A stretch of DNA of 64,000 nt. It comes from Eledone cirrhosa. Taxonomy: Eukaryota. The position numbers were made by a program, and so were the translations under genes. The stretch is taken from NCBI GenBank assembly GCA_964016885.1, contig OZ024740.1:205592001-205656000 (forward strand). The letters run 5' to 3'. Below, in pieces: positions 25,666 to 56,316 of the stretch. The notes beneath the pieces are model-generated. The model made no database searches, was not told the origin of the DNA, and was given only the letters and a program-made list of their open reading frames with translations. Each line of letters begins with the position of its first letter. Position 1 is the stretch's first letter.

Positions 25666-25830
25666 TTAGTCTGACCCTTCCTCATCTGTGTCTGAGCTTC
25701 GACCACCTCTCTGTGCTTTCTTCTTTCTGATCTCTTCCAAAGTAGCTTCCACTGTGTCTTCATAATGAGAAGCCAGTAATGACAATACGTCCTTGTGGGT
25801 GCAGTAATAGAGGAAGAACATGAAGAAATT
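25666..25830 (-). CDS. Adhesion/secretin-type (7tm_2) GPCR, coding exon 9 (end of TM7, helix 8, C-tail, stop)
   Basis: Acceptor ttttctatttcag; NFFMFFLYYCTHKDV...EEGSD*; phase 0 matches the previous exon. Confidence 0.9.
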   Translation of the reverse strand, partial: NFFMFFLYYCTHKDVLSLLASHYEDTVEATLEEIRKKKAQRGGRSSDTDEEGSD

Positions 25831-26989
25831 CTGAAATAGAAAATGAAAAAAAGAACATTCCATTATTTGTAGACGTTTATCAAGTATGAGAGAGATTTTT
25901 GCAGAGGAGAGAATTATTATTCCATCATCTTCATTTTCCATACTAGCATGGGTTAGATGGGCTTTTGCAGTCTATGACTATATGGATCGGAGAACTATAT
26001 TTTGCTTATTCATTCCATTTTAGCCATGGTTTCTATGACTGGGTGCTTTTCCTAACACTAACCACTATACAGAGTGTACTGGGTGCATTTTATCATGAAA
26101 CTAGTATCATTACTTTACAGAGTATAATGAGTGCATTTTATCTTGGGGCACCCAACATTATCCCTTTACAGAGTGTACTAGGTGCATTTTAACATAATGC
26201 CAGCATTACCACTTTAATTGTGTCTTACATTATTTTTGGCAAGCTTTCTTCTGTCTGGATACTCATCCTATCACCGACCCCTTTACAGTGAGAACTGGGT
26301 ACATTTAACTGTGCCACCCACACTAGAGAGGTTGTTTAATAGGATTTAGAGGTCCTCTGTACACTGTATCAGTTTTTATTCAGAATGACTGCTCTCGTAG
26401 ATGGGTTGCTTTCGTTATGACTGTGCAGTCTCATTTTATTCAGAGTGATTGCTTTCCTAGATGAGCTACCTTTCTTTGAAGCTTACGAAGTCCATGCCTG
26501 GCCCATACATTTTTATCTCTTTGGAGTTACTGCTCTCCTAGACAGGTTGCCTTTCCTGTGACCTCATCTACCCACAAGATATCTGCGAATACATGCAGAC
26601 ATGCTAACAAAATCAGAAAACAGTACAGTTCCCATTCGTAAACATTTTTTCATGCTCAGAGTTGCTAAAGCATGGAGCAAGCTACCTGCATCCTTCAAAA
26701 CTTCCATGCTTTTTGAAATTTGCCAACACTACACCTGATATTCCTCCTCCACACACACACACACATGTGTGTGTGTGTCTGTATGTATATCATGATTCAT
26801 ACACTGTTCACTTTCCCGACATCTGTACATTGTTTCATGTACTATACATGTACCTTTGATGAGTTGTAGTGCACTTGAGCACTACACAATAATTTTCATT
26901 ATTATTATTATTATACAAATTATAGCAAGTTAATACATTAATTATACAAATTATAGTCTATTAATAGATTAATTATACAAAGGTGAGCT

Positions 26990-27475
26990 TTAACTTTCAT
27001 CCTTATGGGGTCGATAAAATAAAGTACCAGTAATGTATTGGGGTCGATTTAATCAACTTTCCCTTTCCCCCCAAAAGTGTTCGCCTTGTGCCTAAATCAG
27101 AAAGATTGGTGGATTGGCAGTATCAGTAGAGGGTCAGACGTCATGCTTTCCAGCATAGTTACGTCCCTTTACGATCCGAGTTCAAATCCCGCCGAGGTTG
27201 ACTTTGCCTTTCATCCTTATGGGGTCGATAAAATAAAGTACCAGTAATGCACTGGGAAATTGCTGGCCTTGTGCCTAAAGTAGAAACAATTATTATTGAA
27301 TTGGCAGTATTGGTAGAGGGTTGGACGTCATGCTTTGACGCATAGAGTAGAAACAATTATTATCATTATCATCCTCGTCGATTTAATGTCAGCTTTCCAT
27401 GCTGGCAAGTTCTAATCTTGGTGAGGTTAGCTTTGCCCTTCATCCTTACGGGGTCGATAAAATAAAGTATCACTG
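26990..27475 (+). mobile_element. Cluster of four full or partial Meta-like SINE copies
   Basis: Repeated ctttcatccttatggggtcgataaaataaagtaccag cores; full copy at 27107-27297. Confidence 0.8.
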
Positions 27476-27586
27476 GATTTAACCGACTTTGATAATGAAA
27501 ATAATAATAGTAGTAAAGAATCAGAAAAATATAGATGTCACTTAGTTGAGTTAAACATTGCCATCAGTGAAGTAAAATTATAATTA

Positions 27587-28298
27587 CCGTATATGCTGGC
27601 GTACAAGTCGACATTTTGGGCCTAAAAATATCTCTCCAAACCACGGGTCGACTTGTCCGCCGAATATATAATGTGAACCTTTGCGACTGAGGGGCAAACA
27701 GTGAAACTGCCTGCCTAACACTTGTTGTACACCACTTATCATAACTCTAGCAGCCCACCACAATTATTTCCTACTGAATCTCATATTTGTTATGTCTATT
27801 TAACGTAGAGATTATAATAATTGTTTCTACTTTTTGGCACAAGGCCAGCAATAACCCAGTGCATTACTGGTACTTTATTTTATCGACCCCGTAAGGATGA
27901 AAGGCAAAGTTAACCTCGGCAGGATTTAAACTCAGAATGGCAAGGGCCATAACTCTATGCATCAAAGCATATTGTCCGCCCCTCTACCGATACTGCCAAT
28001 CCACTGCCGTAGAGATTATAATAATATCAATGACTTGGGTAGGGTAGGCTTCCATAGGTTCGTTAAGGTTAGGTAAGGCTGGTTTACTCGGTGAATTAGA
28101 ACTCACTTGAGACTGGAGTGTTTTAGAAGTGTCTTAGCCTTTAGCGCGCCACTAAACTTTTTGAATTATTTCCCCTGCAATTGCCTTATTTTTGAGGGGT
28201 CGTCTTATCCAGCGAATATAGGCCTAAACCTGAATTACACCTCAGAATTTTAGGGGTTGACCTATGCCCCAGATCGACTTGCACACCGGCATATATGG
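27587..28298. mobile_element. Tc2/pogo-like MITE carrying a nested SINE
   Basis: TA|CCGTATATGCTGGCGTACAAGTCGA...TCGACTTGCACACCGGCATATATGG|TA; minus-strand SINE at about 27820-28007 flanked by the TSD cgtagagattataataat. Confidence 0.75.
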
Positions 28299-28477
28299 TA
28301 GTTCAATAAATAGGCACCATTGTAGCATATCACATGGTAGATGGAAAATGTGTGTTTGTGTATATCATGACTCATACACTGTTCACTTTCCTGACTTTTG
28401 TACATTATTCTATGTACTATACATGCACCTTTGATGAATTGTAGTGCACCTGAGCATATTTTCATTATTATTATTAT

Positions 28478-28668
28478 AATTGTTTCTATTTTTGGCACAA
28501 GGCCAGCAATTATCCCAGTGTATTACTGGTACTTTATTTTATCGACCTCTTAAGGATGAAAGGTAAAGTCAACCTCGGCGGGATTTGAACTCAGACCATA
28601 AAGGGCCGTAACTCTTTGCTGCAAAGCATGGTGTCAGACCCTCTACCGATACTGCCAATCCACTGCCC

Positions 28669-28702
<34 letters not shown>

Positions 28703-28900
28703 ATGGCGGTGGATTGGCAGTATCAGTAGAGGGTCGGACGCCATGCTTTGCAGCACAGAGTTACGGCCCTTTACGGTCTGAGTTCAAATCCCGCTGAGGT
28801 TAACTTTGCCTTTCAACCTTATGGGGTTGATACAATAAAGTACCAGTAATACACTGGGATAATTGCTGGCCTTGTGTCAAAAGTAGAAACAATTATTATT
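28478..28900. mobile_element. Head-to-head inverted pair of Meta-like SINEs
   Basis: Minus copy 28478-28667 and plus copy 28705-28900, separated by about 37 bp of mostly (TTA)n. Confidence 0.9.
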
Positions 28901-29261
28901 AGTATCATAATTATATCAGTGTGACAGTGTTTTGAATTACTGGTACAATCAGTCAGACAAGCTTCCAAACTGTTTCACTCTAAGTTATATAATGTAAAAT
29001 AAATAAGGACAATTATTGTATACAGTGCTCAGGTGCACTGTACGTAATAATTTTCATTGTTTTTGTTTATTATGACAGCAAAACAAATGAAATATTCAAT
29101 CAAATTAATGATAGACAAAGTTGGTAAGCATTGGTAAGCAAAGTTGAAAGCAAAACAATGGACTGTTAAGCAAAAGCAGAAAAGAATTTAGGTATGTTTT
29201 TAACAGGATTTTCCATGTTTGTAAATATGGTAAAGTATTAAATAATTTATAAGATACTGAC

Positions 29262-29391
29262 CTGTGGTCCTGCGGTTAAGATGAACAGCCAACCAAAAGG
29301 AAGTGTACCATAGCCAGTGAGAGGAATCAAACCAAACAACCAACCGGTTCCAAACAGATGAATTTCACCAATGAATGTGACAACAATATTC
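29262..29391 (-). CDS. GPCR coding exon 8 (TM6 to start of TM7)
   Basis: tctttacag / gtcagt; NIVVTFIGEIHLFGTGWLFGLIPLTGYGTLPFGWLFILTAGPQ (LFG.GWLFG TM6-type motif). Confidence 0.9.
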
Positions 29392-29409
29392 CTGTAAAGA
29401 GTCATGAGA

Positions 29410-29866
29410 GAAACTAATGTAGGTACACTTGGGTAGAGTTAACCTGTGGTAGATTGGTGGTGCGGTGGGGTGAGGTGGAGGGAAGGATGAGTGGGTTGTA
29501 GCCAGTGGCCTCATACTGGAGATACACTTGGGTAGAGTTCACCTGTGGTAGATTGGTGGTGGGGTGAGTTGTAGCCAGGGTCTCCATATTGAAGATACAT
29601 TTAGTGTTAACCCGTGGTAGATTGGTAGTGGGGTGGGGAAGGATGTGTAGGTTGTGACCAGGGGCCTCACAATGTAGGTACACTTAGCTAGTATTAACCA
29701 GCGGTATATTGGGGTAAGGGGTAGTGTGAGGATGACTGAGCTGTAGTCAAGGGCCCCACAATATTTAAAGGACCCCCAAATCAATGTATTTGCTGTCATA
29801 AAAAATATGCAAGGGCCCAGATGAAAATTTCAGCCAGGGGCCCATACAAACTTAATCCATTCCTGG
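29410..29866. repeat. Degenerate GT-rich tandem repeat ending in a hAT-like terminus
   Basis: Repeated atacacttgggtagagtt.acctgtggtagattggtgg units; the reverse complement of the right end reads CAGGAATGGATTAAG...GGGCCC. Confidence 0.45.
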
Positions 29867-31218
29867 TGCTATCCCTTTTGATATTAAACCATTCAAGACA
29901 GCCCCAGGTTCTAAGATATAAAACCTCTCATTCTAAGATGTCTATATTTAAATTAAAACCTTCCATTATAATTTTAAGTAAGAACTTTTTGTTGTTCCAA
30001 ATACCAACTTAATAATAAAAAAGTTAATTTATGTTACTCCCAAATCTTGATTATTTTCAAAGTTTATTTTATTAGAAATATGGTTAGTAATGGGTTAAAT
30101 AAGATTATAAGATACATAACATGTTTTCTTAAAACACTTTCTAAGGTTTCCAAATAATTTTGAAACTAAGCAAGAATTTGGGGTGATACATACATTCATA
30201 CATACAATTTCATATATTTTGATTTATGAATGTATGTATAGTATATTTGATAATATACTGTATGTTTAATTAAAAACATTTTGAAGAGTATTCACTATGA
30301 ATTTTTAAAGTAGTGACTATGTCACTTATTCTCAGCAAAAACAAAAGGCAGTAATCGACAGTCCTGTTTCTCACTTGTTAGCAGTTATCAAGACTACTCA
30401 CTCCTTCGCTTCTGCCGAGAACTACAGAAGATGGATTCTTATGGAATAAACAGAGCGGTTGCCGGTCCAGCAAAAATTAGGTATTAGTATTGGTGCTCTG
30501 AAATAACGATGTATATATGAATGTATATATAGTATATTTGATTTATATTTATTTGTCAGTAAAGCTATCTATGTTAACCTTTTAAACACCAAACCACATA
30601 AAACTATCTCATTAAATTGTTCAAATTTCAATTCAAATCATGAACTGAAAATAATTATTATATGACAGATAATATTAGATTTCAGTAGTTGAATATTAAT
30701 CTTTTATTATTAATTCTTAACATTCTGTAATGATTTCACAAAAATATCTAAAAACAGGTTTGTTAATTCAAATGTTTATAGTATCTTTACTAGTGGACAG
30801 ATCATAGTGAAAATTTGCAATAAACTAAAGTAATGACTAATTATGAATATGATATCATCATAGCGATGTTTTCTACTTGCTAGGAGAATTTTGCTAATGT
30901 GGTTTCTTGTGGTACAGGACATTAGGAGTGAAATTAAAAGGTGAGGGTGGTGAGTTGGTAGAATCATTAGAATGTCTGTGAAACTGCTTTGTAGCATTTA
31001 GTTATGAATTTTTAGGTTCTAAGTTCAAATCCTGCTGAGGTCAACTTTGCCTTCCATCCTTCCGAGCTCAATAAATTCAAGTACCAGTCAAGTACTAGGG
31101 TTGATATAATCAACTTTCTTCTTCCATCAAATTGCTGTGCCTAAATGGGAAATCCTTAAATTAAAAGGTAATTATTTCATTAAACCTCTTCTAATTTGTT
31201 TTATTGGTTTCAGTCATT

Positions 31219-31305
31219 AAACTGCAGCGATGCTGGTGTCTTGTCAATAAACTGCAGCGATGCTGGTGTCTTGTCAATAAACTACAGCGATACTGGTGTC
31301 TTGCT
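31219..31305. repeat. Three-copy 29-bp tandem repeat
   Basis: aaactgcagcgatgctggtgtcttgtcaa repeated. Confidence 0.8.
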
Positions 31306-31409
31306 CTAGTCAATCATCTTGATCTCAGTACTACTTATTTTTTCATATCTGGTACTTAATTCATTGATCTTTTTTGTCAAACTGCTAAAATATGGAGGCC
31401 AACTTCATA

Positions 31410-32810
31410 GGAAGACCTTTTCCATGCCTGCTATCAGGAATGTACCTAGGGTTTTCCTCTCTTCAGGGAGGTGCATTCTCATGAGGTGGAAAGAATACTT
31501 TGCTGATCTCCTAAACCTGGTCACAACAGCATTTTCTGATGTACATGAGATGCATCAAGGAGCGATGACTAACTCTCAGAGACTGAGGTCACCAGAGCAA
31601 TTAAAGAGCTCAAATGTGGCAAAGGCCTCTGGGGAGAATGAAATCCAACCCAAGATGTTAAAAACCTTAAATATAAAAAGTGTTTTCTGGCTGACTCATG
31701 TGTGCCAGATGACCTGGTACCAAAGCAATGGCAATCAGGAGTGATAATCACAATTTTCAAAAAGGGAGACAAGTGGGATTGCTCTAAGGTATATGACTGC
31801 CTTCCACAGGACTTATTGTGGAATATTCTGTGGGAGTATGAGATTAATGGACATCTTTTTGTTACCTTGAAGTCCCTATATGAATGCCCTAGTATTTGTG
31901 TTCAGATAAATGGTGCTAAGTCAAAACCATTCAATGTGGGTTCTGAACTCTCCCAAGGATGCGTACAATCATCTCTCTTGTTCATAATCTTCATGAACAG
32001 GATTGACATGCACAGCCAGGTTGGAAGTGGTATCAAGACCGGTGTGTATAGAATCAGCTGGCTTGAATTTGCAGATGAATATGGTACTGCTTAGCTTGTA
32101 GGAAAGGGATCTCCAGCATATACTGGACAGGTTTGCTGCTGAATACTGCACAGCAAGAATGGAAATTAGTGCTGCGAAGACTGAGACAATCATCCTCTCA
32201 ATGAAGCCTGTGCAGTTCACTCTACATATGAATGGAGTTCCATGTGTAATGGAAGGTAGGAGGCTGAATTAAATGTAAGAATTGCAGGAGTTGGTGTAGT
32301 AATGTGCCAGCTTCAGCATTTGGTCTTCAGAAAAAGAGAGGCACTATTTTCAATTCAGTATTTGTGCCAACCCTTACTTATGGTGATGAATCTTGGGTAA
32401 TGACCAAATGAATACGATTGCAAATATGAGTAGTTGAAATGGAGTTCCTCTAAAGGGTCTTTTGAGTAATGTTACTTGATAGGGTGTGTAGCCCAGAGAG
32501 TCTCTCCAGGTAGAGCTGCTACTTCTCTGAATTGAGCAATCACAGATCTGACACTATGGACATGAATAATCAGAATGTCCAAGGAAGTAATCACTGGACA
32601 AATTTTACAGGCCAAGCCAACAGGCAAGAGATACAGAGGTTGACCCTGAGCCAGAAGGTTGGATAATATCCATGAACTCGATTAGATTCACTTGGGGATC
32701 TAGCCAGATCAATTGGAGATGGTTGCTTCCGATAGAACCTGCTGGAAGGCATCTGAAGACTCTGTCCCCATGACCCTCTCAGGAATAAGTGGGCAAAGAG
32801 AAGATGTATG
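31410..32810 (+). mobile_element. Decayed, internally deleted RTE (Expander-like) LINE, RT and 3' end, intronic
   Basis: RWKEYFADLLN, KASGENEI, WQSGVIITIFKKGD, QGCVQSSLLF, FADE motifs. Confidence 0.85.
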
Positions 32811-32939
32811 GTAAAGAAACATAAAAAAAAAACCCATAGTGGATGATGATTCATCTGAAAATGTTGGGGCTGGAGAGAAAGTTTCACTATTAAAACCTCT
32901 ACATACTTTTCTTTTCCCTTTTATTTAATGATGACTTAC

Positions 32940-33031
32940 GTTAGTTTATGTTTCATGGATCTTCTTTCTTCTTTCTCACAATCTTTCTTCCATCGGTTCC
33001 ACAGAGATAGTACGAAAACCAAATGATTAAA
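32940..33031 (-). CDS. GPCR coding exon 7 (end of TM5, ICL3)
   Basis: ctttcactttag / gtaagt; FNHLVFVLSLWNRWKKDCEKEERRSMKHKL; keeps the family-B TM5 Asn. Confidence 0.88.
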
Positions 33032-34775
33032 CTAAAGTGAAAGAAAAATATGAAAGAATCGTAAGAGAATTTCTTATTTTAATTTTCAATGTTAGATCAA
33101 TTATAGGAATTAAAAAAATTAACTCTTTTGATATCAAAACACTCAAAGCTATTCCTGGCTCTATAAAGAAATTTATTTGTTTTCAAGTGTTAATGTTTAA
33201 ATTAAAACCTTCCAATATATTTTTTTGTTAGAATCTTTACTGACGTTTGGCCCTGAAGGAAAGGAACCAATCAGATTGGACCAAGGAAATTATTGGTCTT
33301 TTCATTGCTAATACTTATCTGCTAGTCATAAATTTTAGAAGAAGGAACCAGATTTGAATGCAGAATGTATAGAACTGGATCAGATACTGCAAAGCATCCC
33401 ACCTGACTTTAACAATTCCACAAACCCACTGTACATGAACTTGTACTTTATTTTTCCTAAGTTTTTTATTATTTTCAATATTAACTGAAAATCAGAGAAA
33501 GGCACTCTTCTTAGTGCTTGGGCCACAATAAAATGCACCCAGTACATCCAGTAAGGTGGTTGGTGATAGTAAGGGTATCCAGCTGTAGAAACCATGCCAA
33601 AAGAAGGATCAAGAGGACTCTTCAGTTGTATCAAGAGCACAACACCCTCTCTAGTGTTGATTATCTACACTATAAATGCATCCAATTCACCCTTTAAAGT
33701 CATTAGTGATAGGAAGGGCATCCAGCCCTATAAAACCTACCTATCAAACAAAAGGTTGAGGGGACTCTTCATGTGTCAAAGACATGACAACCTTCCTAGC
33801 ATTGGTGTCCACTTAGTAGAGTGTGGAAATGTATGTAAGTGAAGTGCAGGCCCACAGACTATGTGAGAGGTCACCACAGTTGTATGTGAGATGTGGACCC
33901 CAGGCCCATCTGAGAGGTTGCCACAGTTGTGTATGAGATGTGGACTCCTGGCCCAACTGTGTGGTTAGTAGCTCTGATTAAGTACTGACTTGGTCCATGA
34001 TGACCTGTCCAGCTTTTGCTAGCAGGGAAAACAGATATTAAATGATGATGAGTGTACAGGTAAGTGGATTTGCTGAATTTTATATCATTACAGCAGTTGT
34101 TTTTACTTCAGGATGTTGTTTCTACAGCTAAATATTGAAGCATGAATTAGGAGGAAAATAATGTAGTATAGTTAATAAAAATCATTGTGAGATATGTAAT
34201 AAATAACTGATAAGTTTCAGTAAGCCAGTACAATGTGGTAGAAATATATAAAGAGCAAAGGATGAAAAATAAAACAAGATAGAAGAACAGTGATTGTTCG
34301 TTTTTTTTTTTTTTTGAAAAGAGGGTAATAGCTCTGAAATATCGTTGAAATATTCTGGTTAAAACAGTGATAAATTATGACATACATGTGTACAACAATC
34401 AAAACAACTTTTTCTAGTTTGTCAACTACCTCATTCTCTGATGGTCACCATCATGTTGGACCAAGGAAGTAATGTTTCCATTAGTCTTTCCAGTGCTGAT
34501 AATGTATGTCAGCAGAAGAAACATGAAATAAAGTATTTTGTTCAAGAATACAATGCCTCACTTGGTCCAGGAAACAAACCCATGACCTTATGAGCATGAG
34601 TCTAACACTTTAACTTATAGGTCACATGCCTTCACCTCTGATGGTGAGAACATATTAAAATAAAACCAGAAGAATGTCCTACTAATTGTTAGTGATTTCA
34701 TCACCTGTTTGATGTGAGTGATGTCCACATAACAAAATGACACAACAACAGATAAATACCAATTTTTCTACTTAC

Positions 34776-34836
34776 ACAAAGAATACAATAGACAGGTCCC
34801 ATGAAGATCCATTGTGTCCAGTCTGTGAGCCAGCAT
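34776..34836 (-). CDS. GPCR coding exon 6 (ECL2 CW motif, TM5)
   Basis: ttttattacag / gtaagt; CWLTDWTQWIFMGPVYCILC (CW...W.F.GP signature). Confidence 0.92.
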
Positions 34837-35569
34837 CTGTAATAAAACCAACCAGTTAAATAAAATACAAGACAATAAAGACACTTAACCCTTTAGTATT
34901 TAAACCGGCTGTATCCAGCCATAACTCTTTTGCTTATTGATACAGTAGTTTAAATTGTAGTGTGGTGACCCCATAATTTTAACAGAAAAAGCCCCCAAAA
35001 TTTGATTTTTATATATATTTTAAATTTCATAATTTCAATATCAATTCTAATTTTGATTTTGAAGATATTTTTACAATTCTTTTTTTAAAAATTAATCAAA
35101 TATCTCGCTGTTATTGTTTAAAGAAACAGTGTGAATGACTGAGTCAAAGAGTTATTTGGTAAAGGCAATGAGATTTAATCTCCTTTATAACAGTTGGGTT
35201 CCCTAATTGTAAAACAGTACCATTGCTAAGCTGGAGTGTATTACCACAGGAAAGCTCAATTGTGTATAATCTTCTTCTTCTGTACCTCTCACTCCTCCTC
35301 ACCTCCTTCCTCCTATGCACCCAGTATCCCCTGTAAGATGGTTGGTGACAGGAAGAGTATCTAGCTATAGAAACCATGCCAAATATGGAAAGTATGAACA
35401 AGATGTAGTCACCTGATCAGTCTAGCTTCAGAACGTGATGACATCCTGTTCAACCCAAGCTATAAAAATGATGATGATGATGGTGGTGGTGGTGGTGGTG
35501 GTGATGATGATGATTACAAACAGATTTAAACTATCAATTCTGAGATATAGTTAGAAAGTATTTACTTAC

Positions 35570-35700
35570 ATTTTTCCATTGATGAGATTATCAGGGTAAT
35601 ATATGACAATTGGTATAATACCAGCCCATGGTATACCATAACCCACTATCATGTACATAATACGCCGAAAATGTTTACTTCCATGGATTCCTATCGTACA
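35570..35700 (-). CDS. GPCR coding exon 5 (ICL2, TM4)
   Basis: tttgtccag / gtaagt; CTIGIHGSKHFRRIMYMIVGYGIPWAGIIPIVIYYPDNLINGK (G[YW]GxP motif). Confidence 0.92.
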
Positions 35701-36761
35701 CTGGACAAACATGACCAAAGAAAAGAAGACTTTAAACATACATAGTTAAATATTTTAAAACATTTTCAAACAGAAATACACACATATATTGAATTAGAAT
35801 TATTTAGGGCAAATGTTAGCAATGGAGACTTCTGCTATCCTTGGCCCTAGAAATACCTCCCTGCTCACCACCATTGGCACGGAGTTGGCTACCCACAGGT
35901 GTGAGCCTCGCGAGCTAGAATGACTCTTCCAATGTGTCTCCCTCATCATCCTCCAGGGAAAAAAACCTTCTCTATTCTGTCCATTGGGGCCACGGGGTGG
36001 TCAGCGCATGGGTTCCCATTTGCATATAATAGTGAGAGATGGGGAGAACGAGAGATACAGAGGCAGTGAATGAAAGAGAGAGAACATCAACACACACACA
36101 CGCTCTTGATAAGTCAAAGAAAGTTGTGAAGAGTGAAAATTCTATTGGTCAATCAACTTTCTTGTAGTAATAACAATAATAAAAATAATCACTAAATGTA
36201 GAACTGTAAATTCAAGTTTTTTTACACATCTACAGATACAAAACTTTGGAGACCTCCAAACTAGTAAATCCATCCCTTGTGGATGCATTATTCACTAAGC
36301 ATTTATTCCCTCCTGTGTGTCTATATGGATCACTTTGTGAAGCTCCAATTTAAATGTTTTCATTTCATAAGACATTAATATTGGCAAATACAGTTACTTT
36401 CAATTTCTGAACTTTTATCAGCATTTTCTGAGTGGAAGAGTAATTTTTGGTCTTTTGAAAACATGAAAACTGTTGAATTTATTTAGAATAGATTTCCTGT
36501 TTGCCTCACTGTTTGCAACCTGGTTACAAACACAGTTCCACTGCAGTTCCCGGGTTACAAACAGTGTGACGAAAATCTTGACAGCAAGAAATAAATGATA
36601 AATATAGAGAGAATTTAGTAGCTTTCATATATTTTTGAATGACTAAAATGATTCTTCCATGATGTAATTGCTTTAGTTTGAACGCATGGTCTCAGATCAA
36701 GACACTTGTCAAACAACAATAACTCCAAAATTCATCAAAATATAAAATATAAGTTACTTAC

Positions 36762-36854
36762 ATCTGCTAACTTCCAACAGGCATAAAGAAACATCCAACT
36801 AAATGAAGACGTATACAGGAACACTATCGCCACCGTTGCAGCTATACAGAAGGA
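36762..36854 (-). CDS. GPCR coding exon 4 (TM3)
   Basis: ctcattacag / gtaagt; SFCIAATVAIVFLYTSSFSWMFLYACWKLAD (top-of-TM3 Cys, FxWM). Confidence 0.92.
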
Positions 36855-37208
36855 CTGTAATGAGAATTAAGAATAAAATAAAACAAAAAACAAACAAAAA
36901 ACAAAAGACAAAACACAACAAAAAACAAAACACAAAACACAAAACAAAAAGAATAGAATAAAACAAAATAAAATAAAAATAATAATATCAACATAATTCC
37001 AGGTGTTATCAGAGCTTTGGACTGAATACCACTAAAACTGAGAAACAAATAGACCTTGAATCACATTGGTGTCAGGTAGTGTACATATACAATGTATTGT
37101 CTGTCTAAGGTCCTTGTGGAGTCTTGACAAGTAATAAAAGATCCATATATCATATGTACTGTGCAGACCCTCAATAATAATATTTTTTTGTAAGGTATCT
37201 CTAGCAAT

Positions 37209-37527
37209 CAGTTGCTAGGTGAAGTGTTAATTGGCCTTATTGGTTGCTAGGTGAAGTGTTAATTGGCCTCATCAGTTGCTAGGTGAAGTGTGAATTGGCC
37301 TCACCAGTTGCTAAGTGAAATGTTAATTGGCCTCACCAGTTGCTAAGTGAAATGTTAATTGGCCTCATTGGTTGCTAGGTGAAGTGTTAATTGGCCTCAC
37401 CAGTTGCTAGGTGAAGTGTTAATTGGCCTCATCAGTTGCTAGGTGAAGTGTTAATTGGCCTCACCAGTTGCTAGGTGAAGTGTTAATTGGCCTCATTGGT
37501 TGCTAGGTGAAGTGTTAATTGGCCTCA
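37209..37527. repeat. Minisatellite, 32-bp unit x about 10
   Basis: cagttgctaggtgaagtgttaattggcctca(t/c) repeated. Confidence 0.95.
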
Positions 37528-37926
37528 GAACCCTGATCTGAGAGACTCAGTATATTGTGCAGGATTCTGGCAGTGTTAGTGATGGTAGAAATTTGGGCAC
37601 TGCCTATGAAGTCAGGGATCCCAAGTCTTTTGATGAAAGACATAAGTCATTTAGGGACCATATCATTACATCTGATGAAGGTATTTCGATATGATCAGTA
37701 CTGGTACTTTATTTTATCAACTCAAGGATTAAAGGCAAAGCTAACCTCAACATGGTTTGAACTCAGAATGTAAAAGGCCGTAACTCTATACTGCAAAGCA
37801 TGTTGTCCGACTCTCTACCGATACTGCCAACTGCCAATCGACCACCGTAGTTATATAGTTATAGTTTTATATATATATATAAAGCAGGGAAAAGCGGACG
37901 TAAAATGATGATGATGATGATGATGA

Positions 37927-37961
<35 letters not shown>

Positions 37962-37963
<2 letters not shown>

Positions 37964-38127
37964 ATTCTACAGGACTAGAACTGTTTCATTCTTTAGAAAT
38001 CATCAGGAATCTAAAGAATGAAACAGTTCTAGTCCTGTAGAATCTCATCTATATTAAAACTTTTATACTCTGCAATGTATTGAGTACCTTACTTACTGTG
38101 GTTACCTCCGATTCAACCCGGAATAAC

Positions 38128-38130
<3 letters not shown>
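37962..38130. mobile_element. Short Penelope-like terminal remnant with a perfect 36-bp inverted repeat, between (TA)n tracts
   Basis: Arms 37962-37997 and 38010-38045 are exact reverse complements; the minus strand reads CTGATGA...GAAAC...GTC. Confidence 0.6.
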
Positions 38131-38162
<32 letters not shown>

Positions 38163-38164
<2 letters not shown>

Positions 38165-38480
38165 CCTTGCAATCGAAAGGTTGTCAGTTCAATTCTCAGA
38201 CTGGGTGATGTGTTGTTTCCTTGAGCAAGACACTTTATTTCACATTGCTCCAGTTTACTCAGCTGTAGAAATGAGATGATAGGGACTGGGGTCTTTATCA
38301 TTCCACTGCAAAGTGGTCGTGGAGGTGCCATGGCAAAAAAGCACCCAGCACTCACTGTAAATGAGGTTGGTGTTAGGAAGGGCATCCAGCTGTAGAAATC
38401 AAGCCAGCACCAGTTCCCGTCCCACCCTTGCAAGCAGGGAAAAAGCGGACGTAAAATGAAATGAATGAAAAAATGAAATG
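38163..38480 (+). mobile_element. CORE-like SINE with RTE-derived 3' tail
   Basis: Core ccttgagcaagacactttatttcacattgctccag; tail cccgtcccacccttgcaagcagggaaaaagcggacgtaaaatga matches the LINE 3' end at 45621-45663. Confidence 0.8.
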
Positions 38481-38673
38481 AATAATTGTTTCTACTTTTG
38501 GCACAAGGCCAGCAATTATCCCAGTGTATTACTGGTACTTTATTTTATCGACCCTGTAATGATCAAAGGCAAAGTTAACCTCAACGAGATTTGAACTCAG
38601 ACCATAAAGGGCCGTAACTCTTTGCTGCAAAGCATGGCGCCCGACCCTCTACCGATACTGCCAATCCACTGCC
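38481..38673 (-). mobile_element. Full-length Meta-like SINE
   Basis: Closely matches 28478-28667; another minus copy lies at 37697-37845. Confidence 0.85.
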
Positions 38674-39439
38674 CTCTATTTATATATAATAAGATTGAAA
38701 CACATCCATTGCTTCCACTGAGCTGTCTTATAGACAAGTTCCTCTTCCCCTGCATTGAATTCTTTTTAATTCAGGTTTTTTAAAAAGATGTATTTTATAA
38801 ATAGAAGGAATGGATCTCGACAATAGGTGTTCCAGTGTCCTTTGGTCAATGGAACTGCCTGCCCATTAAATCAATATATGAATAGCTGAGAAATCACCCA
38901 AAACGTATGCTCTTAACATAATTCTCAGGGAGATTCAGCTGATTCTACTTAAGAATTATATTAAGGGTACGTATGTCTGTGGAATACTCAACAACATGGC
39001 AGCTCATCAGTGAAACAGAGGACCCATTATTATGGTTACAGTAACAACAATAACTACAACAACAACCATCACAATGATGATATGATGGTGGGATGGGTGT
39101 TTTAATGCACCTTTATTAATGGAATGAACCTCCAGTTTCAATGATGAGTATATCAGTTGTTTAATCAAAACAACAGTCTGTTCATGAAATTAACATGTAA
39201 GTGGCTGAGCATTCTATACATATGTACACTCTTAATGTTATTCTCAGGTAAATTCACCATGACATAGTGTGTGACAAGGTTCACCCTCTGTATTACAGGT
39301 ACAGTCTATCTGACGGGCTTCCACACAGTTTCTGTTTACCCAGCTTCACTCATACGGCTTAGGTAAATAACATTTGTCCAAGATGTCATACAGTGGGATT
39401 GAACTTAATGATAACAAAATGAACTTCTTAACCATTTCC

Positions 39440-39642
39440 ATACACACACATGCACACAGATACACATACACACACACACACACATATAGACACACTAAAA
39501 CACAGAAACTGCAGACAGACAGATACACACACACATGCATGCACACACATGCATGCACACACATGCACACATATGTCCCCCCCCCCCACATGCATACATA
39601 GAGACATCATACTGAAACACAGAAACTGCAGACAGACAGACA

Positions 39643-39680
<38 letters not shown>
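39440..39680. repeat. CA-rich compound microsatellite with internal duplication
   Basis: (CA)n tracts; aaacacagaaactgcagacagacaga occurs twice. Confidence 0.85.
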
Positions 39681-40394
39681 TACATATTTGTATCTGTGTG
39701 TATGCATGTGACCGTACGTAAATTGATTTTGATGAACATAAGACCTTGAAAAATAAAAAAAAATAATCCGATTTAATCGAATTATGAATAAATAAGCTTT
39801 TTGTAAAGAGCTATCGAAAATGTCCGCTAAAAGTGTGAGAATCCTATCTCTGTCGTACTGTAGATAGACGTAGCGAGATCGGAGTGAAGACTGAAAAGCC
39901 AGGCGGGTCATTTGCAGTTATGTAAAAATAGATTTCAGATTTCTTTTTAATCGATTATCCGCCCTCTAGTATTTCGGGTGTTGGTAGTATCAATGTGTAT
40001 TAATACAGTAAGAGTTGAGTCTAAGAGGATTAAATGTATAATTCCTACTAGAACTGTTAGCCAGTATTTAGCTTCATTTTTGTTTAATATATTTTTTAAA
40101 ATTTAAAATAACTATTGATTATTGTATCTTATATAGTTACAAGGTTTTATAATTATAAGAAAGATGAAAAAGAATTGAGAGTGCGATGTTCAAACCTTAG
40201 TTTTAAAAATGAAAACAATGTCTAATTAGTAACAGTAAATACTATCATCATAATCATCATTTTTATGTTCGCTTTCCACACTGGCATGGGTTGGACAGTT
40301 TATGTTCTGAGGCTAGGCTGGTCAGGTGATCACATCTAACTCATATGTTCCATAATTGGCATGGTTTTATGGCTACATGCCTTTCCTAACACTG

Positions 40395-40878
40395 ACCACT
40401 TTACAAGGTGTACTGGTTGCACTTTTCCTTGGCACCAGCACTACCTCTTTACAGAGTTGAATTGATTGGCTATGTTTTATTATGGTACCAGCACTACTAC
40501 TTTACAGGGTAGGGTGGGTGTATTTTATCATGGCACCAGCACTATCACTTTACAGAGTAGACTGGGTGTATTTTATCATGGCACCAGCACTACCGCTTTA
40601 CAGAGTAGACTGAGTGTATTTTATCATGGCACCAGCACTATCACTTTACAAAGTAGACTGGGTGTATTTTATCATGGCACCAGCACTACCGCTTTACAGA
40701 GTAGACTGGGTGTATTTTATCATGGCACCAGCACTACCGCTTTACAAAGTAGACTGGGTGTATTTTATCATGGCACCAGCACTACCACTTTACAAAGTAG
40801 ACTGGGTGTATTTTATCATGGCGCCAGCACTACCACTTTACAAAGTAGACTGGGTGTATTTTATCATGGCGCCAGCAG
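40395..40878. repeat. Minisatellite, 48-bp unit x about 10
   Basis: ctttacagagtagactgggtgtattttatcatggcaccagcactacca units; accounts for the periodic ORFs 40466-40897 and 40614-40883. Confidence 0.95.
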
Positions 40879-41290
40879 TATAGAGGTTGTCACATAATCT
40901 TTCAGACTGAAGAATCCTTTCAGACGCTGTATTGTCTCTGTTCAATCACCAAGAACTGTAGTTTCTGGTCTTTTACCACATTACTGTGTTTAAGTACACC
41001 TCAGCACAATGGTAAATATGGAACTGATTGTAGTGATTCCATACATTTCCTGTAAAGAGAATATAGCAACAACTCTCCAAGAATCTCTCATGGAGAACAC
41101 AAATTCTCAACATATCTAGGACTGCTTTTTTTCCGGGCCTTGAAAATATTTCAGCCCAAATAACTAATGACCTTTTATGGGTGAGATTTACAACAAAATA
41201 CAGCTTCCACAGCTGGGGTAGCACTCGTGTTTCTTACACTGGCATCCTAGATCTCATCAAGAAAAAAAGTCTCATGGCTAATCAGTTTAA

Positions 41291-41509
41291 CTCTTTAGCA
41301 TTTAAACTGGCCATATCTGGCCAGAATTCTCTTCCCTCTTTCTGTTCAAACCAGCCATAACCAGCTGCTTGTACTTACGTTAAGGTATTGTTTTCAAAAT
41401 ATATAATATCAAAACCTCGTAGATTCAATATTATGTAAGATAATTATAAGATAAAGTATTTATCCTGAAAATGAAATAGTAAATATAGAATAATGTAAAT
41501 GGTAAAGGG
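41291..41509. mobile_element. Third TTAA-flanked MITE family
   Basis: TTAA|CTCTTTAGCATTTA...TAAATGGTAAAGGG|TTAA; further copies at about 42980-43180 and 43475-43856, the latter split by a SINE at 43626-43793. Confidence 0.75.
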
Positions 41510-41914
41510 TTAAAGACACTTTCTGATACTTTCCAGCTACTTGCTTTACTGACATGTCTATTCCTGCTTTTTCTACCATTGCAACATTTTATGTTCTTCA
41601 GAGCTTTCTGAACTTATGCCACCTCTACTCAAGCACTCCTGACTCAGTCGTCTCTCACCACCCATGTTATGTCTAATCTCCCCATCAAGAAGGAACCATC
41701 ATGAAGGACCCCCCCCCCCCATTATATTGCTCTTGAATGTGTCTAAACCCATGTCCCCATGGAGAAAGCAATGGAACATCTCCCATTTATATTGCTCATG
41801 AATCACACACTATATAATGTATGTATCCCATTGCTCCAGTCAAGTTCTGGGACTAACAACCTCTACCATGACAGTTCTGTGTTGCCTTAATTGACTGAAC
41901 AATACAAATCTTAC

Positions 41915-42014
41915 CTTGTCTGGATATGTATTTTCCAGCCCCATCAACCCGGCTTGCGCCGTTGTCACTATCGTTGCTAAATTACCAGCAATGAAAAAAT
42001 TGTCAGAACCAAGC
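41915..42014 (-). CDS. GPCR coding exon 3 (ICL1, TM2, ECL1)
   Basis: ttttattttccag / gtaaga; LGSDNFFIAGNLATIVTTAQAGLMGLENTYPDK (IxxNL TM2 motif). Confidence 0.9.
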
Positions 42015-43978
42015 CTGGAAAATAAAATAAAATAAAATAAAACATTGTTATTTTAAACATTTTTTTTTTTTTTACATATTTTAAACTTTTAGGGATAGTA
42101 TTTCTAATGAAATACACTCTATTTCAATTAATTAATGAAAAATTTTGAGGGATTTACTAACATTATTATTTCATAACTAAGATAGTAACTTAAAATATGG
42201 TTTTTATATAAAATGATGTAAGAAGATTTTAATTTAAATAGGAAATATTGATAATGGGTGGTTTTGTTTCAGAGAACCAGAGCCAGTTTTGGGTAGGTTG
42301 GTATCAAATGAGTTGAACATGCTAGGTATTTTTCTCAGTGATTTAAGGTAATGAGCATTGGCACTTTATTCAGAAAAATTGAGAGTTAAGTGGATGAGAG
42401 ATAAACATCATCTAGGATAAGGTACTAGTTTGTTAAAAGTATCTTCCCCTTCAAAAGATTTCAGTCAAGCACTATAATTTAAAGAAACAATCATCAGATA
42501 TACAAAATTTCCACTGGATGTAGGTGTTTAATTCCTACTATTTCTACTGCTGCAGTCATTTCAGCCCTGAACAATATATTTCATGCTGAACACTTATTTC
42601 ACATGCCGTAGTTCAACACAATAAATATCACATTATATTTTGATATTTCCTGAGACAAGGGTGCTGGATTGGCAGAATCATTAATGTTGAATAAAATGTT
42701 TTGCAGTATTTAATTACCACCTTCTATGTTCTGAGTTTAAATCTCTTTGAGGTCAATTTTGTCTTTCATCCTTCTGGGGTTGATAAAATAAAGTACCAGT
42801 TAAATACTAGGGTTGATTTAATTAACTTTTTCCTCCTCCCAAATTTGTTGGCCTTGTTTCTAAATGAGAAATCAATATTTCCTGAGACAAACTGATATCC
42901 ACCAAGTGCAACAATTGGCTGCACATCACAAGGGTCAATGGAACACTTTGAAGTAAGCCAACATGTTTGCAACATTACCACATTTAAACCGGCCATATCT
43001 GGCCAGAATTCTTTCACCTCTTTCTGTTCAAACTGATCATAACCGGCCACTCATACCAAAGTTAAGGTATGGTTATCAAGATAAATAATATCAAAATCTT
43101 GTAGATTCTATAATATGTGAGATAAAGCCTTTACTGTGAAAATACAATAGTATATGTAGAGTAATGTAAATGCTAAAGGGTTAATGGTTTCTAATTTAGA
43201 TACAAGACCAACAATTTGGGTGAGGCGGGGAGTTGATTAAATCAACCTCAGTGTTTGACTGAGATTTTAATTTATCAGTCCTAGTGGGATGAGCTGGGTG
43301 GGAATTTGAACTCAGAAATTAAAGAGCCACAAAGTATTTCTTCCAAAACTCTATTGTCTCTGCCAATATTTCACCTGTGTTAATCTATTTAATAATATAG
43401 TTGAAAGATTTTATTTTTCATTCTTTTCACAGGGAAGTCTTCTAATTCAAAAATAGTAGTTATATTTACCTCAACCCTTTAGCATTTAAACTGGTCATAT
43501 CTGGCCAGAATTTTCTCACCTCTTTCTGTTCAAAATGTCCGTAACCAGCCACTCATACTGATGTTAAGTTATTGTTCTCAAAATAAATAATATCAAAATC
43601 TGATAGATTCGATATTATGTGAGATAATTATTGTTTCTACTTTTGGCACAAGGCAAACAATTACCCCAGTGAATTACTGGTGCTTTATTTTATCGACCCT
43701 GTAAGGATGAAAGGCAAAGTTGACTGTGGCGGAAATTGAACTCAGACCGTAAAGGGACGTAACTCTATGCTACAAAGCATGGCGTCCGACCCTGTGAGGT
43801 AAAGCCTTTACCATGAAATATAATAGTAAATATAGAGTAATGTAAATGTTAAAGTGTTAAGTTTACCTTAAAATCTTCAAATATCAAAGTGCTATATTTT
43901 GAAATCAGATCCCAAAGGTTTACAATATCTGGCTATAAATTCTAATTTCTGTAATATTTTCTTTCGGTTGTTACTTAC

Positions 43979-44082
43979 CCTAAATAGACCCACGTAAAAT
44001 GGATCAACATGGTTCCTGCAAAGGAGCATCCTATGCAAGCAACTGTAGCTTTTTCCATCATCGGTTGATGATATTCAGGTAC
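43979..44082 (-). CDS. GPCR coding exon 2 (stalk, TM1)
   Basis: ctttcaacag / gtaagt; VPEYHQPMMEKATVACIGCSFAGTMLIHFTWVYL. Confidence 0.88.
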
Positions 44083-44092
44083 CTGTTGAAAG

Positions 44093-45953
44093 TGAAACAT
44101 TAAGGGTTTACTCAGAGAAACAAGGGCTACATGAAACATTTAGGGTTTACTGAGAGGAACAAGAGGTGTATGTAACATTTAGGGTTTACTGAGAGGAACA
44201 AGAGGTGTATGTAACATTTAGGGTTTACTGAGAGGAACAAGAAGTGTATGTAATATTTAGGGTTTACTGAGAGGAACAAGAAGTGTATGTAATATTTAGG
44301 GTTTACTGAGAGGAACAAGAAGTGTATGTAACATTTAGGGTTTACTCAAAGGAACAAGAAGTGTATGTAATATTTAGGGTTTACTCAAAGGAACAAGAAG
44401 TGTATGTAATATTTAGGGTTTACTCAAAGGAACAAGAAGTGTATGTAACATTTAGGGTTTACTCAGAGGAACAAGTGGTGTATGTAACATTTAGGGTTTA
44501 CTCAGGGGAGCAAGAGGTGTATGTAACATGTAGGGTTTACTGAGAGGAACAAGAGGTGTATGTAACATTTAGGATTTACTAGGAGTACATCAGGGTTCGG
44601 TTCTCAGCCCGCTCTTGTTCATTATAGTCCTCCAAGCCATAACAGAGGAGTTTAAGACTGGCTGTCCATGGGAACTTCTCTATGCTGACGATCTGGCTCT
44701 TATGGCAGAATCAGTAGAGGAGCTAGAGAATAAATTCCGGCTATGGAAACAGCAGTTGGAAGCAAGAGGACTGAGAGTAAATCTAGCTAAGACAAAAGTG
44801 TTGATGAGTAGAAAAGAGGACAAAACCCTGATTCCGTCAGGGAAATGGCCATGTTCGATATGCAGAAAAGGAACTGGCATAAATTCTATAAAATGCACAC
44901 AATGTAGGTCCTGGGTACACAAGAGATGTAGCGGGATAGCAGGCAAACTAACAGGTAGGGAGAAATATGTATGCAGTAGATGTACAGGGAAGTTAGACAG
45001 TAGAAGTCGCACTGATAGACACATTTTTCAAATGCGAGAGGGCGCTATAGAAGTGGTGGATAGCTTCCGGTACCTAGGAGATCAGATTAGCATGGGAGGA
45101 GGGTGTTCCGAGGCCATAGTATCTAGAATAAGGACGGGTTGGAAGAAGTTTAGGGAGCTGCTTCCTCTGTTGACGAAGAAGGGTTTCTCCCTGCGTACGA
45201 AAGGCCGGTTGTATGATGCCTGTGTGAGGAGCGCGATGCTGCATGGTAGTGAGACATGGGCAGCTACCGCAGAAGATATGCGACGGCTGGAGAGAAATGA
45301 GGCAAGCATGCTCCGTTGGATGTGCAGTGTAAATGTGCGTGAACGACCCAGCATAAATGTGTTGAGAGAGAAACTGTGTCTGAGAGGGATAGAATGTAGT
45401 GTACGGGAGAGGAGACTGAGGTGGTATGGACATGTGATGCGCATGGAGGATGACCGATGGGTGAAGAAGTGCCAGGAAATGCCAGTTGAAGGAAGACGTG
45501 GTAGAGGTAGACCACGAAAAACATGGGCGGAGGTGGTGAGAACAGACCTCAGATCATTGAAGCTCACGGTGGAGATGACGAGGGACCGTGACGAGTGGAG
45601 AGATGCTGTGCTGAATAAGACCCGTCCCACCCTTGCAAGCAGGGAAAAGCGGACGTAAAATGATGATGATGATGATGATGATGATGAGAGGAACAAGAGG
45701 TGTATGTAATATTTAGGGTTTACTGAGAGGAACAAGAGGTGTATGTAATATTTAGGGTTTACTGAGAGGAACAAGAAGTGTATGTAACATTTAGGGTTTA
45801 CTCAAAGGAACAAGAAGTGTATGTAACATTTAGGGTTTACTTAGAGGAACAAGTAGTGTATGTAACATGTAGGGTTTACTCAGAGGAACAAGAGGTGTAT
45901 GTAACATGTAGCGTTTACTCAGGGGAACAAGAGGTGTATGTAACATGTAGGGA
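44093..45953. repeat. Minisatellite, 39-bp unit (about 12 + 7 copies), split by an RTE LINE
   Basis: gtgtatgtaacatttagggtttactgagaggaacaagag units at 44093-44580 and 45686-45953. Confidence 0.95.
44581..45685 (+). mobile_element. 5'-truncated RTE-clade LINE with an uninterrupted ORF and (TGA)n tail
   Basis: GVHQGSVLSPLLF, LLYADDL, Cys/His-rich finger WPCSIC...CTQC..WVHKRC...YVCSRC, FRYLG, RLRWYGHV.R, RGRPRKTW; stop at 45658. Confidence 0.95.
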
Positions 45954-47106
45954 GATCCATTACAGTCTGTACAACTACCAAAAACCTTTCTCTGTAGTGT
46001 ACTGCAGTACTCAGTTGTTAAAACCCCCCACTGTTATAAGGGAAACCAAACAAGAAGAAATACCTGATCACTGCATTAAATTATGTTTAATCTCATAACT
46101 TACTGAGTTATTTGTCAGTAAAATGTGATGATCCAGGTTTTGGGTCATAGGTTTGCTCAATGAAAGCTGACCTAGGGCTAAATAATAATTAGGAGCTTAC
46201 CCAAACTCTACAAGACTAATCTTTGTATCATTCCAATTTAGAATATGTACTGCTGTAACTAGTACCTACAAGACTGGCCACATGACTAAATTATATTGAG
46301 TCTTGTTGATCTATTGGTCACCACTAAAAAGTTTGACTCGCTGATTTATTGATCTTCATACTTTTCTCAGTAATATTTCCATGGTGAGTCATTTTAGTTT
46401 AGCTCATAATGAAATTCTTTATTCCATATTTTTTGTGGAAAAACAAGTTATTTTTTTTATATAAAAGAGACACAGAAATTATCATCATCACCACCATTTT
46501 TCCATGCATTTTCAATGAATATCACTTTTAAAACTGATGGAAATTATTCATTTTTTAGTTAACCATACCTCACGACAAATATCTGAAGTTTGGGGCAGTG
46601 AAGGAGAGGCTAAGGTCAGGGTATATATATGGCATGGGTTAGACGGGTCTTTTTCAGCCCAGCCTCCCACTACTTGTGTTGTGTCCCTTAAAGGCCACCA
46701 TCGGTCATTAATAACCATGGATTTGCACCTAGAAAGTTTCCCTCCAAGGCACAAGCCTGGGCAAGATTTGTTTGTGGAAGACTACCAGTCACCCATGCAT
46801 ACCAGCCTCCCCTCTCCACGCCACCGATATTGTCCAAGGGAAAGGCAATGGCCGATACAGCTTGGCACCAGTGACGTTGCAACACATTTTTAATGGTAGC
46901 AATTCCATACATTTCTGTTAAAGACAATAGTATAGGAACAACTCAAGCAGTTATAGTCTGTACAATGACATGTTTATTTAGTTTCTCATGATAAGTTCCA
47001 GTTCTCCTGTAGACTTGGAGAAAGAAATGCTGCTCTTCAACCACAATATGGAAACAAACAAGAACAGAAAAAAAAAGAAGCATCTGAATGACATAAGCTT
47101 ACTTAC

Positions 47107-47151
47107 CGTATAATTCCCCATCTGCGTGAGGAAAACGTACATAACCGACAT
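47107..47151 (-). CDS. GPCR coding exon 1 (exon spans 47107-47177; candidate start ATG at 47151)
   Basis: ttttattccag / gtaagt; MSVMYVFLTQMGNYT; ATG context CCAAAGATGT. The frame stays open to the acceptor (GCDRQKQPK), so an upstream coding exon is not excluded. Confidence 0.75.
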
Positions 47152-47504
47152 CTTTGGTTGTTTTTGTCTGTCACACCCTGGAATAAAATAAAGAAGTCTT
47201 GAAACATTTTGCTTTTACAATGTTAAAAACTATAAATAGATTTTGTTTTAAAACAATGTTGTCTCTGATCGAGACGAAGCGAGAATGTATTTGAATACAT
47301 ATAAAAATGAGAAAACTCATCGCTAGAACAACCATTAAAACAGCTAAATGCTGTCAAAGACAGCGATGGGCATTAATGCCTCAGAGGACAGAGATCAGTA
47401 GCTAGTGGTCAACAGAAAGACAATCCACAAGGTGGGGGACAGGCAGATGAAATATAGAAAAGATTGAGAGGAGGAGGACACTGCTTTCTTTTTTTTTTAC
47501 TATG

Positions 47505-53707: not shown

Positions 53708-53739
<32 letters not shown>

Positions 53740-55327: not shown

Positions 55328-55329
55328 AG

Positions 55330-56115: not shown

Positions 56116-56121
<6 letters not shown>

Positions 56122-56157
<36 letters not shown>

Positions 56158-56219
56158 CCCATACACACACACAACACACACGCACACATATATATCAATC
56201 ATAATAATACACCACATGT

Positions 56220-56316
<97 letters not shown>

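Follow-up and report, generated by a model that had tools for sequence, protein, structure and literature searches.

An ectodomain-less adhesion-type receptor gene in Eledone cirrhosa and its short mollusc relatives, with a protein start at the Stachel position

Can a receptor of the adhesion type be encoded directly as the fragment that GAIN autoproteolysis makes elsewhere, with the Stachel peptide at the very start of the protein? The question is raised by a gene on the minus strand of a 64,000-nucleotide stretch of the Eledone cirrhosa genome (GCA_964016885.1, contig OZ024740.1, positions 205,592,001 to 205,656,000; hereafter the window), which an initial annotation made from the letters alone had described as an adhesion-type G protein-coupled receptor (aGPCR) reduced to its C-terminal fragment (CTF). 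The analysis reported here indicates with high confidence that an aGPCR seven-transmembrane (7TM) domain without ectodomain, in a protein starting at the Stachel, is the architecture of this gene. The design is real, conserved and apparently undescribed, and its mollusc-wide distribution, together with a retina-specific ortholog, is new beyond that annotation.

The gene consists of nine exons, each bounded by AG and GT, with consistent phases and a single open frame of 306 aa that runs from the Met at 47151 to the TAA at 25666 and holds seven hydrophobic segments; the exon structure first proposed is thereby confirmed. The features of the gene are as follows, where TM, ECL, ICL and UTR denote transmembrane helix, extracellular loop, intracellular loop and untranslated region, and S1, S2 and so on the Stachel positions.

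Contig 205672264-205672700 (L004:6264-6700), minus strand, beyond the window: exon 0, non-coding, with a phase-1 donor; its 5' end is placed from an acceptor-like site
47178..64000, minus strand: the part inside the window of the 5' UTR intron, which measures 33,086 nt in whole and runs to exon 0
47107..47177, minus strand: exon 1, with a 26-nt leader, the ATG at 47151, the Stachel-like peptide and a sequon
47122..47145, minus strand: Stachel-equivalent positions S1-S8 (VMYVFLTQ), within exon 1
47107..47115, minus strand: sequon for N-glycosylation at S11, shared by 10/11 family rows
43979..44082, minus strand: exon 2, stalk and TM1
41915..42014, minus strand: exon 3, ICL1, TM2 (H2.50 replaced) and ECL1 with the family motif E-N-T/S-x-P
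36762..36854, minus strand: exon 4, TM3, with the disulfide Cys and M3.47 kept and E3.50 changed to Tyr
35570..35700, minus strand: exon 5, ICL2, TM4 and the beginning of ECL2
34776..34836, minus strand: exon 6, ECL2 CWL and the beginning of TM5
32940..33031, minus strand: exon 7, end of TM5 and ICL3
29262..29391, minus strand: exon 8, TM6, which keeps W6.53 and G6.50, lacks P6.47 and holds a buried Glu218, and TM7, which keeps F7.42 and Q7.49
25666..25830, minus strand: exon 9, end of TM7 (G7.50 changed to Asn), long predicted helix 8, acidic tail and stop

The assignment to the adhesion-type family B receptors, as first proposed, is well founded. The Octopus sinensis ortholog matches Pfam 7tm_2 at E 1.2e-18, the 7tm_2 domain is nearer to aGPCRs (class B2) than to secretin-type receptors, and the top 24 sequence matches in the PDB as well as the top 29 structural matches are all aGPCRs. 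In the ESM Atlas, only generic 7tm_2 clusters were retrieved. A secretin-type hormone receptor (class B1) was considered and rejected: the hormone-binding HRM domain was found in 0/12 family proteins scanned, and class B1 receptors score far below aGPCRs against the family profile. Similarly, Methuselah_N gave no Pfam match in the scanned family proteins, and atlas rows bearing it rank lower. Scanned exon by exon, the gene itself gave weak Pfam matches only (7tm_2 E 0.05; Ocular_alb E 0.07), and kinship with GPR143 was dropped because the Ocular_alb match is confined to TM3.

What this receptor lacks is everything that normally precedes the Stachel. The O. sinensis ortholog has no Pfam GPS, GAIN or HRM match, and an N-terminal domain was found in 0/10 family proteins scanned. 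A GAIN profile built from 72 receptors and run over the window plus 200 kb upstream (264 kb) gave nothing below E 0.9, while 10/10 control GPS exons were recovered, the controls being favourable because they had been picked as GPS matches. Genome-wide, the Pfam GPS profile yielded 10 matches from 39 candidates, none of them at the receptor locus. In the 8 canonical GPS loci that could be parsed (10 were fetched), CxC and HL-T share one open frame with the Stachel; neither motif is found in exon 1. The initial annotation had noted both motifs as missing from the protein N-terminus, and a GAIN domain with GPS is absent from the protein, from its leader and from the 200 kb upstream; of the 7tm_2, GPS and GAIN profiles it had named, the first was found and the other two were not. 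A large adhesive ectodomain is likewise lacking, with a non-coding upstream exon and a start Met shared among orthologs. Since both GAIN and ectodomain are missing, the receptor is to be regarded as an aGPCR-derived variant and not as a canonical member.

The strong phase-1 acceptor at exon 1 means that an upstream exon had to exist, and an ectodomain-supplying exon of that phase had been singled out as decisive; the exon is indeed spliced on, but it is non-coding. It was located through two contigs from related species and two studies, X1 and X2, in which exon 2 follows exon 1 without the intervening intron. Both are assembled contigs, presumed to derive from RNA and used for their spliced joins only; a third, X3, covers the intron side and was uninformative. 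Upstream of exon 1, X1 and X2 run into sequence that is not found in the genomic flank and that maps 33,086 nt upstream. In each of the two records (lengths 339 and 1641), 62 matching letters from exon 1 stand together with 52 from exon 0, and X2 also matches at a point 140 nt further on. The receptor frame through exon 0 meets 10 stops in 154 codons, the closest being a TGA 39 codons (117 nt) 5' of the Met, with no in-frame ATG in between; the same TGA stands in frame in X1, 114 nt (38 codons) 5' of the ATG. Compared with the Eledone genome, exon 0 of the relatives shows frame-shifting indels. Exon 0 is thus 5' UTR and not coding. Within the window, a candidate listing and a motif search gave no convincing upstream coding exon, and a genome search with the relatives' exon-junction motif, allowing 1 mismatch, returned 0 matches because the species differ. 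The one claim that fell here is that of a 'GC relic' of the GPS at the exon start: the Gly-Cys belongs to the 5' UTR, and at this place the spliced contigs of the relatives read Gly-Ser and carry a 3-nt deletion, so that it is no GPS relic.

Around exon 0, some minor features were also observed. It carries four upstream ATGs with frames of 4-9 codons, which could damp translation. A TATA-like stretch was seen by eye near L004:8990, and about 30 kb of simple satellite lies upstream of exon 0, some 25-56 kb past the window end.

If the protein truly starts at exon 1, the identity of its first residues becomes central. The family profile aligned ungapped to human ADGRD1 from the Stachel Thr through TM1, and in a common-offset test on 8 family proteins the register Val3 = S1 scored 12.3, while the best of the 190 other offsets reached 3.2; the resulting z of 5.6 comes from a second-choice, softer BLOSUM scoring of 8 related sequences, adopted after a strict position-specific scoring matrix (PSSM) had not singled out the octopus Stachel. 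The distance from S1 to S1.50 is 32 residues in the family and also in 58/90 canonical receptors. Gene structure points the same way: the phase-0 donor of exon 1 lies 39 nt past Val3, and in 5/8 parsed canonical GPS exons of the Eledone genome a phase-0 donor lies 30-39 nt past the Stachel Thr (of the remaining three, one has it at 171 nt and two are without a call). By this donor position, exon 1 is a remnant of a GPS/Stachel exon.

The residues themselves follow a distinct pattern of loss and retention. The cleavage Thr at S1 is found in 0/11 family rows versus 95/96 canonical ones, while S3 Tyr, S5 Phe and S6 Leu are each present in 11/11 and S7 Met in 8/8 non-cephalopod rows. The 11-row counts leave out P0010 (divergent N-terminus, no clear Stachel), P0174, near-copies, and P0004 and P0161, whose models start at a TM1 Met. 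In ADGRD1 and ADGRF1, S3, S6 and S7 reach into the pocket, as described in PMC9046087. Judged from these alignments, the family N-terminus is a Stachel in which the cleavage residue is lost and the binding residues are kept.

This arrangement is shared well beyond Eledone. Protein identity to the octopods is 91% for O. sinensis, 90% for O. bimaculoides and 87% for Argonauta, and the models of these three (3/4 cluster members) begin at the same Met; that of O. vulgaris begins instead at Met40. Three 304-aa proteins, 54% identical over the full length, also share the start Met. When 1.8 billion proteins were searched with a profile, the next matches were again receptors of short length, found in scallops, abalone, ark clam, chiton, clams and a sacoglossan. 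In an LG+C20 IQ-TREE phylogeny of the 7TM domain, which took 28 of 89 non-family rows and whose bootstrap was not fully settled, 13 short receptors were separated from the 28 others by a 100/100 branch; P0011, P0025 and P0176 were kept in this tree and left out of a FastTree run, and no ADGRA or Methuselah sequence was knowingly included. The short-receptor clade covers chiton, gastropods, bivalves and cephalopods, with a common Asp54 and the ECL1 motif E-N-T/S-x-P. Its cephalopod stem branch is very long (2.1), and the tree leaves its sister group unsettled. The Met stands immediately before the Stachel position in four genera of scallops and three of clams, in Dreissena and in the chiton. 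No account of an ectodomain-less mollusc family was found in a literature search that left out most subscription journals, the passages available from PMC6900090, PMC8584163, PMC13470171 and PMC11682238 do not mention one, and the accessions and gene identifiers gave 0 matches in the same literature.

Some individual proteins deserve separate mention. The gastropod members Haliotis P0009 and P0165-P0167 and Plakobranchus P0025 share a W-x-N-x-S motif, which holds a sequon, in an 8-39-residue N-terminal extension that is possibly a mini-cap. In P0174 (Ruditapes), a family 7TM without N-terminus is fused to a C-terminal ApeC domain, probably through a mis-joined gene model. Outside the family, a canonical T-S-F Stachel immediately follows the start Met in P0066 (Amphiura) and P0134. 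These two may be truncated models, P0066 sharing its cluster with a 669-aa protein, or else independent CTF-only receptors.

The seven-helix core retains the pocket residues W6.53, F7.42 and ECL2 C-W-L, and in addition G6.50, Q7.49, M3.47 and N5.50. The divergence first noticed at the TM2 His, TM3 Glu and TM7 NSxQG positions is borne out in the alignment, H2.50 and E3.50 being absent from all 19 family rows. This absence is compatible with signalling because ADGRF1, a signalling receptor, has apolar residues at 2.50 and 3.50 too. Glu218, buried in TM6, is invariant in 5/5 cephalopod rows, the position being Leu in 74/89 other aGPCR rows. The most conserved segment is the tail at 265-295 (helix 8), with 77% identity to a distant relative, compared with only 31% in ICL3-TM6 and 37% in TM3-ICL2, which face the G protein. 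Lys is shared only at 194, 198, 265 and 290 and within no membrane helix, so the receptor is not an opsin-like pigment, a class marked by a retinal-binding Lys in TM7.

Structure prediction with AlphaFold2 on 108 alignment rows gave a model of pLDDT 89 and pTM 0.85 (the program's per-residue and overall scores), with a helix at residues 3-9 and a long helix 8; the bound Stachel of aGPCRs is helical as well (PMC9271043). The best structural matches are Stachel-bound CTFs, led by 7ept (Z 30.1, root-mean-square deviation 2.3 over 265 residues), and with active CTF structures the alignment starts by pairing model residue 1-3 with the chain's first residue, which belongs to the Stachel. Steroid-bound structures of ADGRD1 and ADGRG2 are also among the fold matches. 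The prediction from this model is that the N-terminal peptide bends back into the pocket of its own receptor.

The site of action is suggested by expression data. For the O. bimaculoides ortholog (A0A0L8HY79, Ocbimv22002607m), a proportion of 0.995 of the expression across 12 tissues falls in the retina, with a Tau of 0.9995, in a table that lists proportions and not levels (Table S2, PMC6408891). The excerpts of a squid retina single-cell atlas (PMC12240821) include no 7tm_2-labelled retina marker among the markers listed, and of five 7tm_2 matches in its optic-lobe sheet none mapped to the receptor gene. A near-identical retina-only profile (0.996) is shown in Table S2 of PMC6408891 by the class A GPCR Ocbimv22010085m.

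How such a receptor could work can be outlined from general principles of protein biogenesis: an initiator Met is removed before Ala, Pro or Ser, and TM1 can be inserted as a signal anchor. An ancestral mollusc aGPCR may have lost all that lay 5' of the GPS cleavage site, with a new ATG arising at that point. In scallops, clams and chiton, the Met abuts an S1 that is Ala or Pro, so that its removal would yield the N-terminus made elsewhere by GAIN autoproteolysis. TM1 would serve as the signal anchor, and the conserved sequon argues for an N-terminus outside the cell. What would then determine the output is expression, trafficking and desensitisation instead of force. In the cephalopods, where Stachel Met7, P6.47 and G7.50 are lost, activity is probably lowered or retuned, and tonic self-activation is accordingly likely but unproven. 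The preferred reading, with chances about even, is that the peptide folds into its own pocket and, with no cut being needed, sustains tonic and probably attenuated signalling through a G protein in the retina. A broader proposal is offered tentatively and is somewhat less probable than not: that molluscs hold a natural pre-cleaved aGPCR family in which a start codon and Met removal replace GAIN autoproteolysis, that its Stachel has been free of GAIN since the mollusc classes split, and that the cephalopod member is a retina-specific, self-activated receptor setting a tonic signal in the camera eye.

Several observations weigh against self-activation by a Stachel. The octopus peptide on its own is not significant as a Stachel, ranking 7 of 298 windows, and a strict PSSM does not make it the best N-terminal window; the alignment first proposed thus holds at the level of the family (Val3 = S1) and not for the single sequence. 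The TxFxxLM pattern before TM1, found in the family, is degenerate in cephalopods, where S7 is Thr or Gly, and the mutation M(S7)A impairs ADGRD1 and ADGRF1 (PMC9046087). P6.47 is replaced by His or Gln and G7.50 by Asn in 5/5 cephalopod rows, at sites where alanine impairs the same two receptors; among the non-cephalopod mollusc rows with letters there, P6.47 is kept in 12/12 and G7.50 in 11/12. In the structural model, residues 1-10 reach a pLDDT of 56, 89/108 alignment rows are canonical-type aGPCRs that may impose the docking, a six-row run gave a pLDDT of 43 and was discarded, and the structure aligner gives range ends and no contacts. Abalone and sacoglossan members have 8-39 additional residues before S1. 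The complementary DNA evidence comes from related species as assembled contigs, and the retina specificity from one species and one table. Finally, ADGRA1, which is without GAIN, signals without its N-terminus, as reported in PMC13178472.

The same data can be read in other ways. Loss of the S7 Met in 3/3 cephalopod rows would also fit a ligand-gated receptor whose N-terminal peptide serves as a lid or as a weak partial agonist, the receptor being switched on in the Stachel pocket by some small lipophilic ligand present in the retina (steroid, lipid or retinoid). Steroids fill the Stachel site of ADGRG3, the steroid-bound fold matches agree with such a pocket, and the invariant Glu218 in cephalopod TM6 could be read likewise. 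The nearly complete Stachel core of the non-cephalopods would, however, block the pocket, and no common intramembrane Lys is available for a retinal Schiff base, so ligand gating is considered unlikely, if worth keeping in view. If coupling has been given up altogether, the protein would be a structural or scaffold component of the retina, with the Stachel as a folding plug and its function in the helix-8 tail. The contrast between the conserved tail and the variable G-protein-facing segments, the loss of P6.47 and G7.50, and the long cephalopod stem branch are in line with this; W6.53, G6.50, Q7.49, M3.47, N5.50 and the pocket residues are nevertheless retained, and the PxxG motif is found in some aGPCR subfamilies only, which makes an uncoupled protein improbable.

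Two further explanations question the architecture itself. Many aGPCR genes of human and mouse produce CTF-like transcripts from internal starts (PMC11039983), with ADGRB1 as an example (PMC13197933), and the phase-1 acceptor and open 26-nt leader of exon 1, like the 200-kb span of the upstream search, would accommodate an internal-promoter isoform of a larger gene whose ectodomain exons lie further upstream. Against this stand an exon 1 unlike the 8 parsed canonical GPS loci, the 264 kb without a GAIN or GPS match, the scanned family proteins without N-terminal domain, and the O. bimaculoides gene model, which spans 52.9 kb, close to the 55 kb that separate exon 0 and the stop codon in Eledone; such an isoform is very improbable. 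That the gene is a decaying remnant or annotation artefact is hardly credible: its class B motifs are divergent and its branch is long, but frame and splice sites are intact, spliced contigs and tissue-specific expression exist, and identity is upheld over the full length among octopods and to the distant relative.

Taken as an ectodomain-less receptor that starts at its Stachel, the mollusc protein is most similar to the CTFs of ADGRD1 (GPR133), ADGRL2/L3 and ADGRF1, which are its best matches in sequence (E 1e-46 to 1e-44) and fold (Z 27-30) and with which it shares Stachel register, stalk length, ECL2 CWL, W6.53, F7.42 and Q7.49. Unlike these, it has no ectodomain, GAIN, CxC, HL-T or signal peptide, the fragment being the primary product, and it differs in the lost S1 Thr, S3 Tyr, invariant S5 Phe, new sequon and missing H2.50 and E3.50. 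The RefSeq label 'ADGRD2-like' is best read as denoting the best match only, as ADGRD orthology is not implied by the tree. ADGRA1 (GPR123) is comparable in having a 7TM domain with a very short N-terminus after ectodomain loss. In the literature it is named as the only GAIN-less mammalian aGPCR, and its N-terminus is without tethered-agonist homology and dispensable for basal signalling (PMC13178472). In contrast to ADGRA1, with its long tail and PDZ motif, the mollusc receptor has kept the Stachel and has a tail of about 40 aa. We infer that the two ectodomain losses were independent. The mammalian CTF isoforms from internal promoters similarly give a CTF-like product without signal peptide (PMC11039983), but from full-length genes, whereas the mollusc gene itself appears ectodomain-less across four mollusc classes. 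An aGPCR expansion specific to octopus (group 3 in Ritschard et al. 2019, PMC6408891) is likewise class B, cephalopod and linked to sensory tissue; the present ortholog is listed instead in class B group 0, which has no expansion, and the portions of the text covered contain no discussion of this ortholog.

These comparisons bear on a debate in the aGPCR field, namely whether the Stachel is conserved as an agonist or merely as a beta-strand of GAIN, and whether CTFs on their own have a physiological role. An in-silico design study of 2026 attempts to separate the two kinds of constraint on the Stachel (PMC13470171). The mollusc family offers a natural experiment, with GAIN gone, the cleavage Thr lost and the pocket-facing residues kept, and it provides natural constructs of about 300 aa for studying tethered agonism without engineered truncation. 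Furthermore, near-exclusive retina expression suggests that the cephalopod eye uses a GPCR other than an opsin that has yet to be studied; a pre-cleaved, self-activated retina receptor, if confirmed, would be an unrecognised component of cephalopod vision.

In addition to the receptor gene, a few features of the locus were recorded. A second copy lies at 205.27-205.37 Mb of the same contig, 339-340 kb away and in the same orientation; it is 97.9-99.6% identical across about 70 kb, with 0 differences in all nine coding exons, and reflects either a duplication of very recent date or a haplotype left uncollapsed in the assembly. Long frames at window positions 56864-58628 (minus strand), 12010-14161 (minus strand) and 44573-45655 (plus strand) look, judged by eye from their motifs, like decayed retroelement reverse transcriptases, the last of them breaking into a 39-bp tandem repeat in intron 1. 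On the 3' side of the receptor gene, at 20643-21426 (plus strand), two open frames, 159 and 181 aa long and hydrophobic, are possibly an exon of a neighbouring gene.

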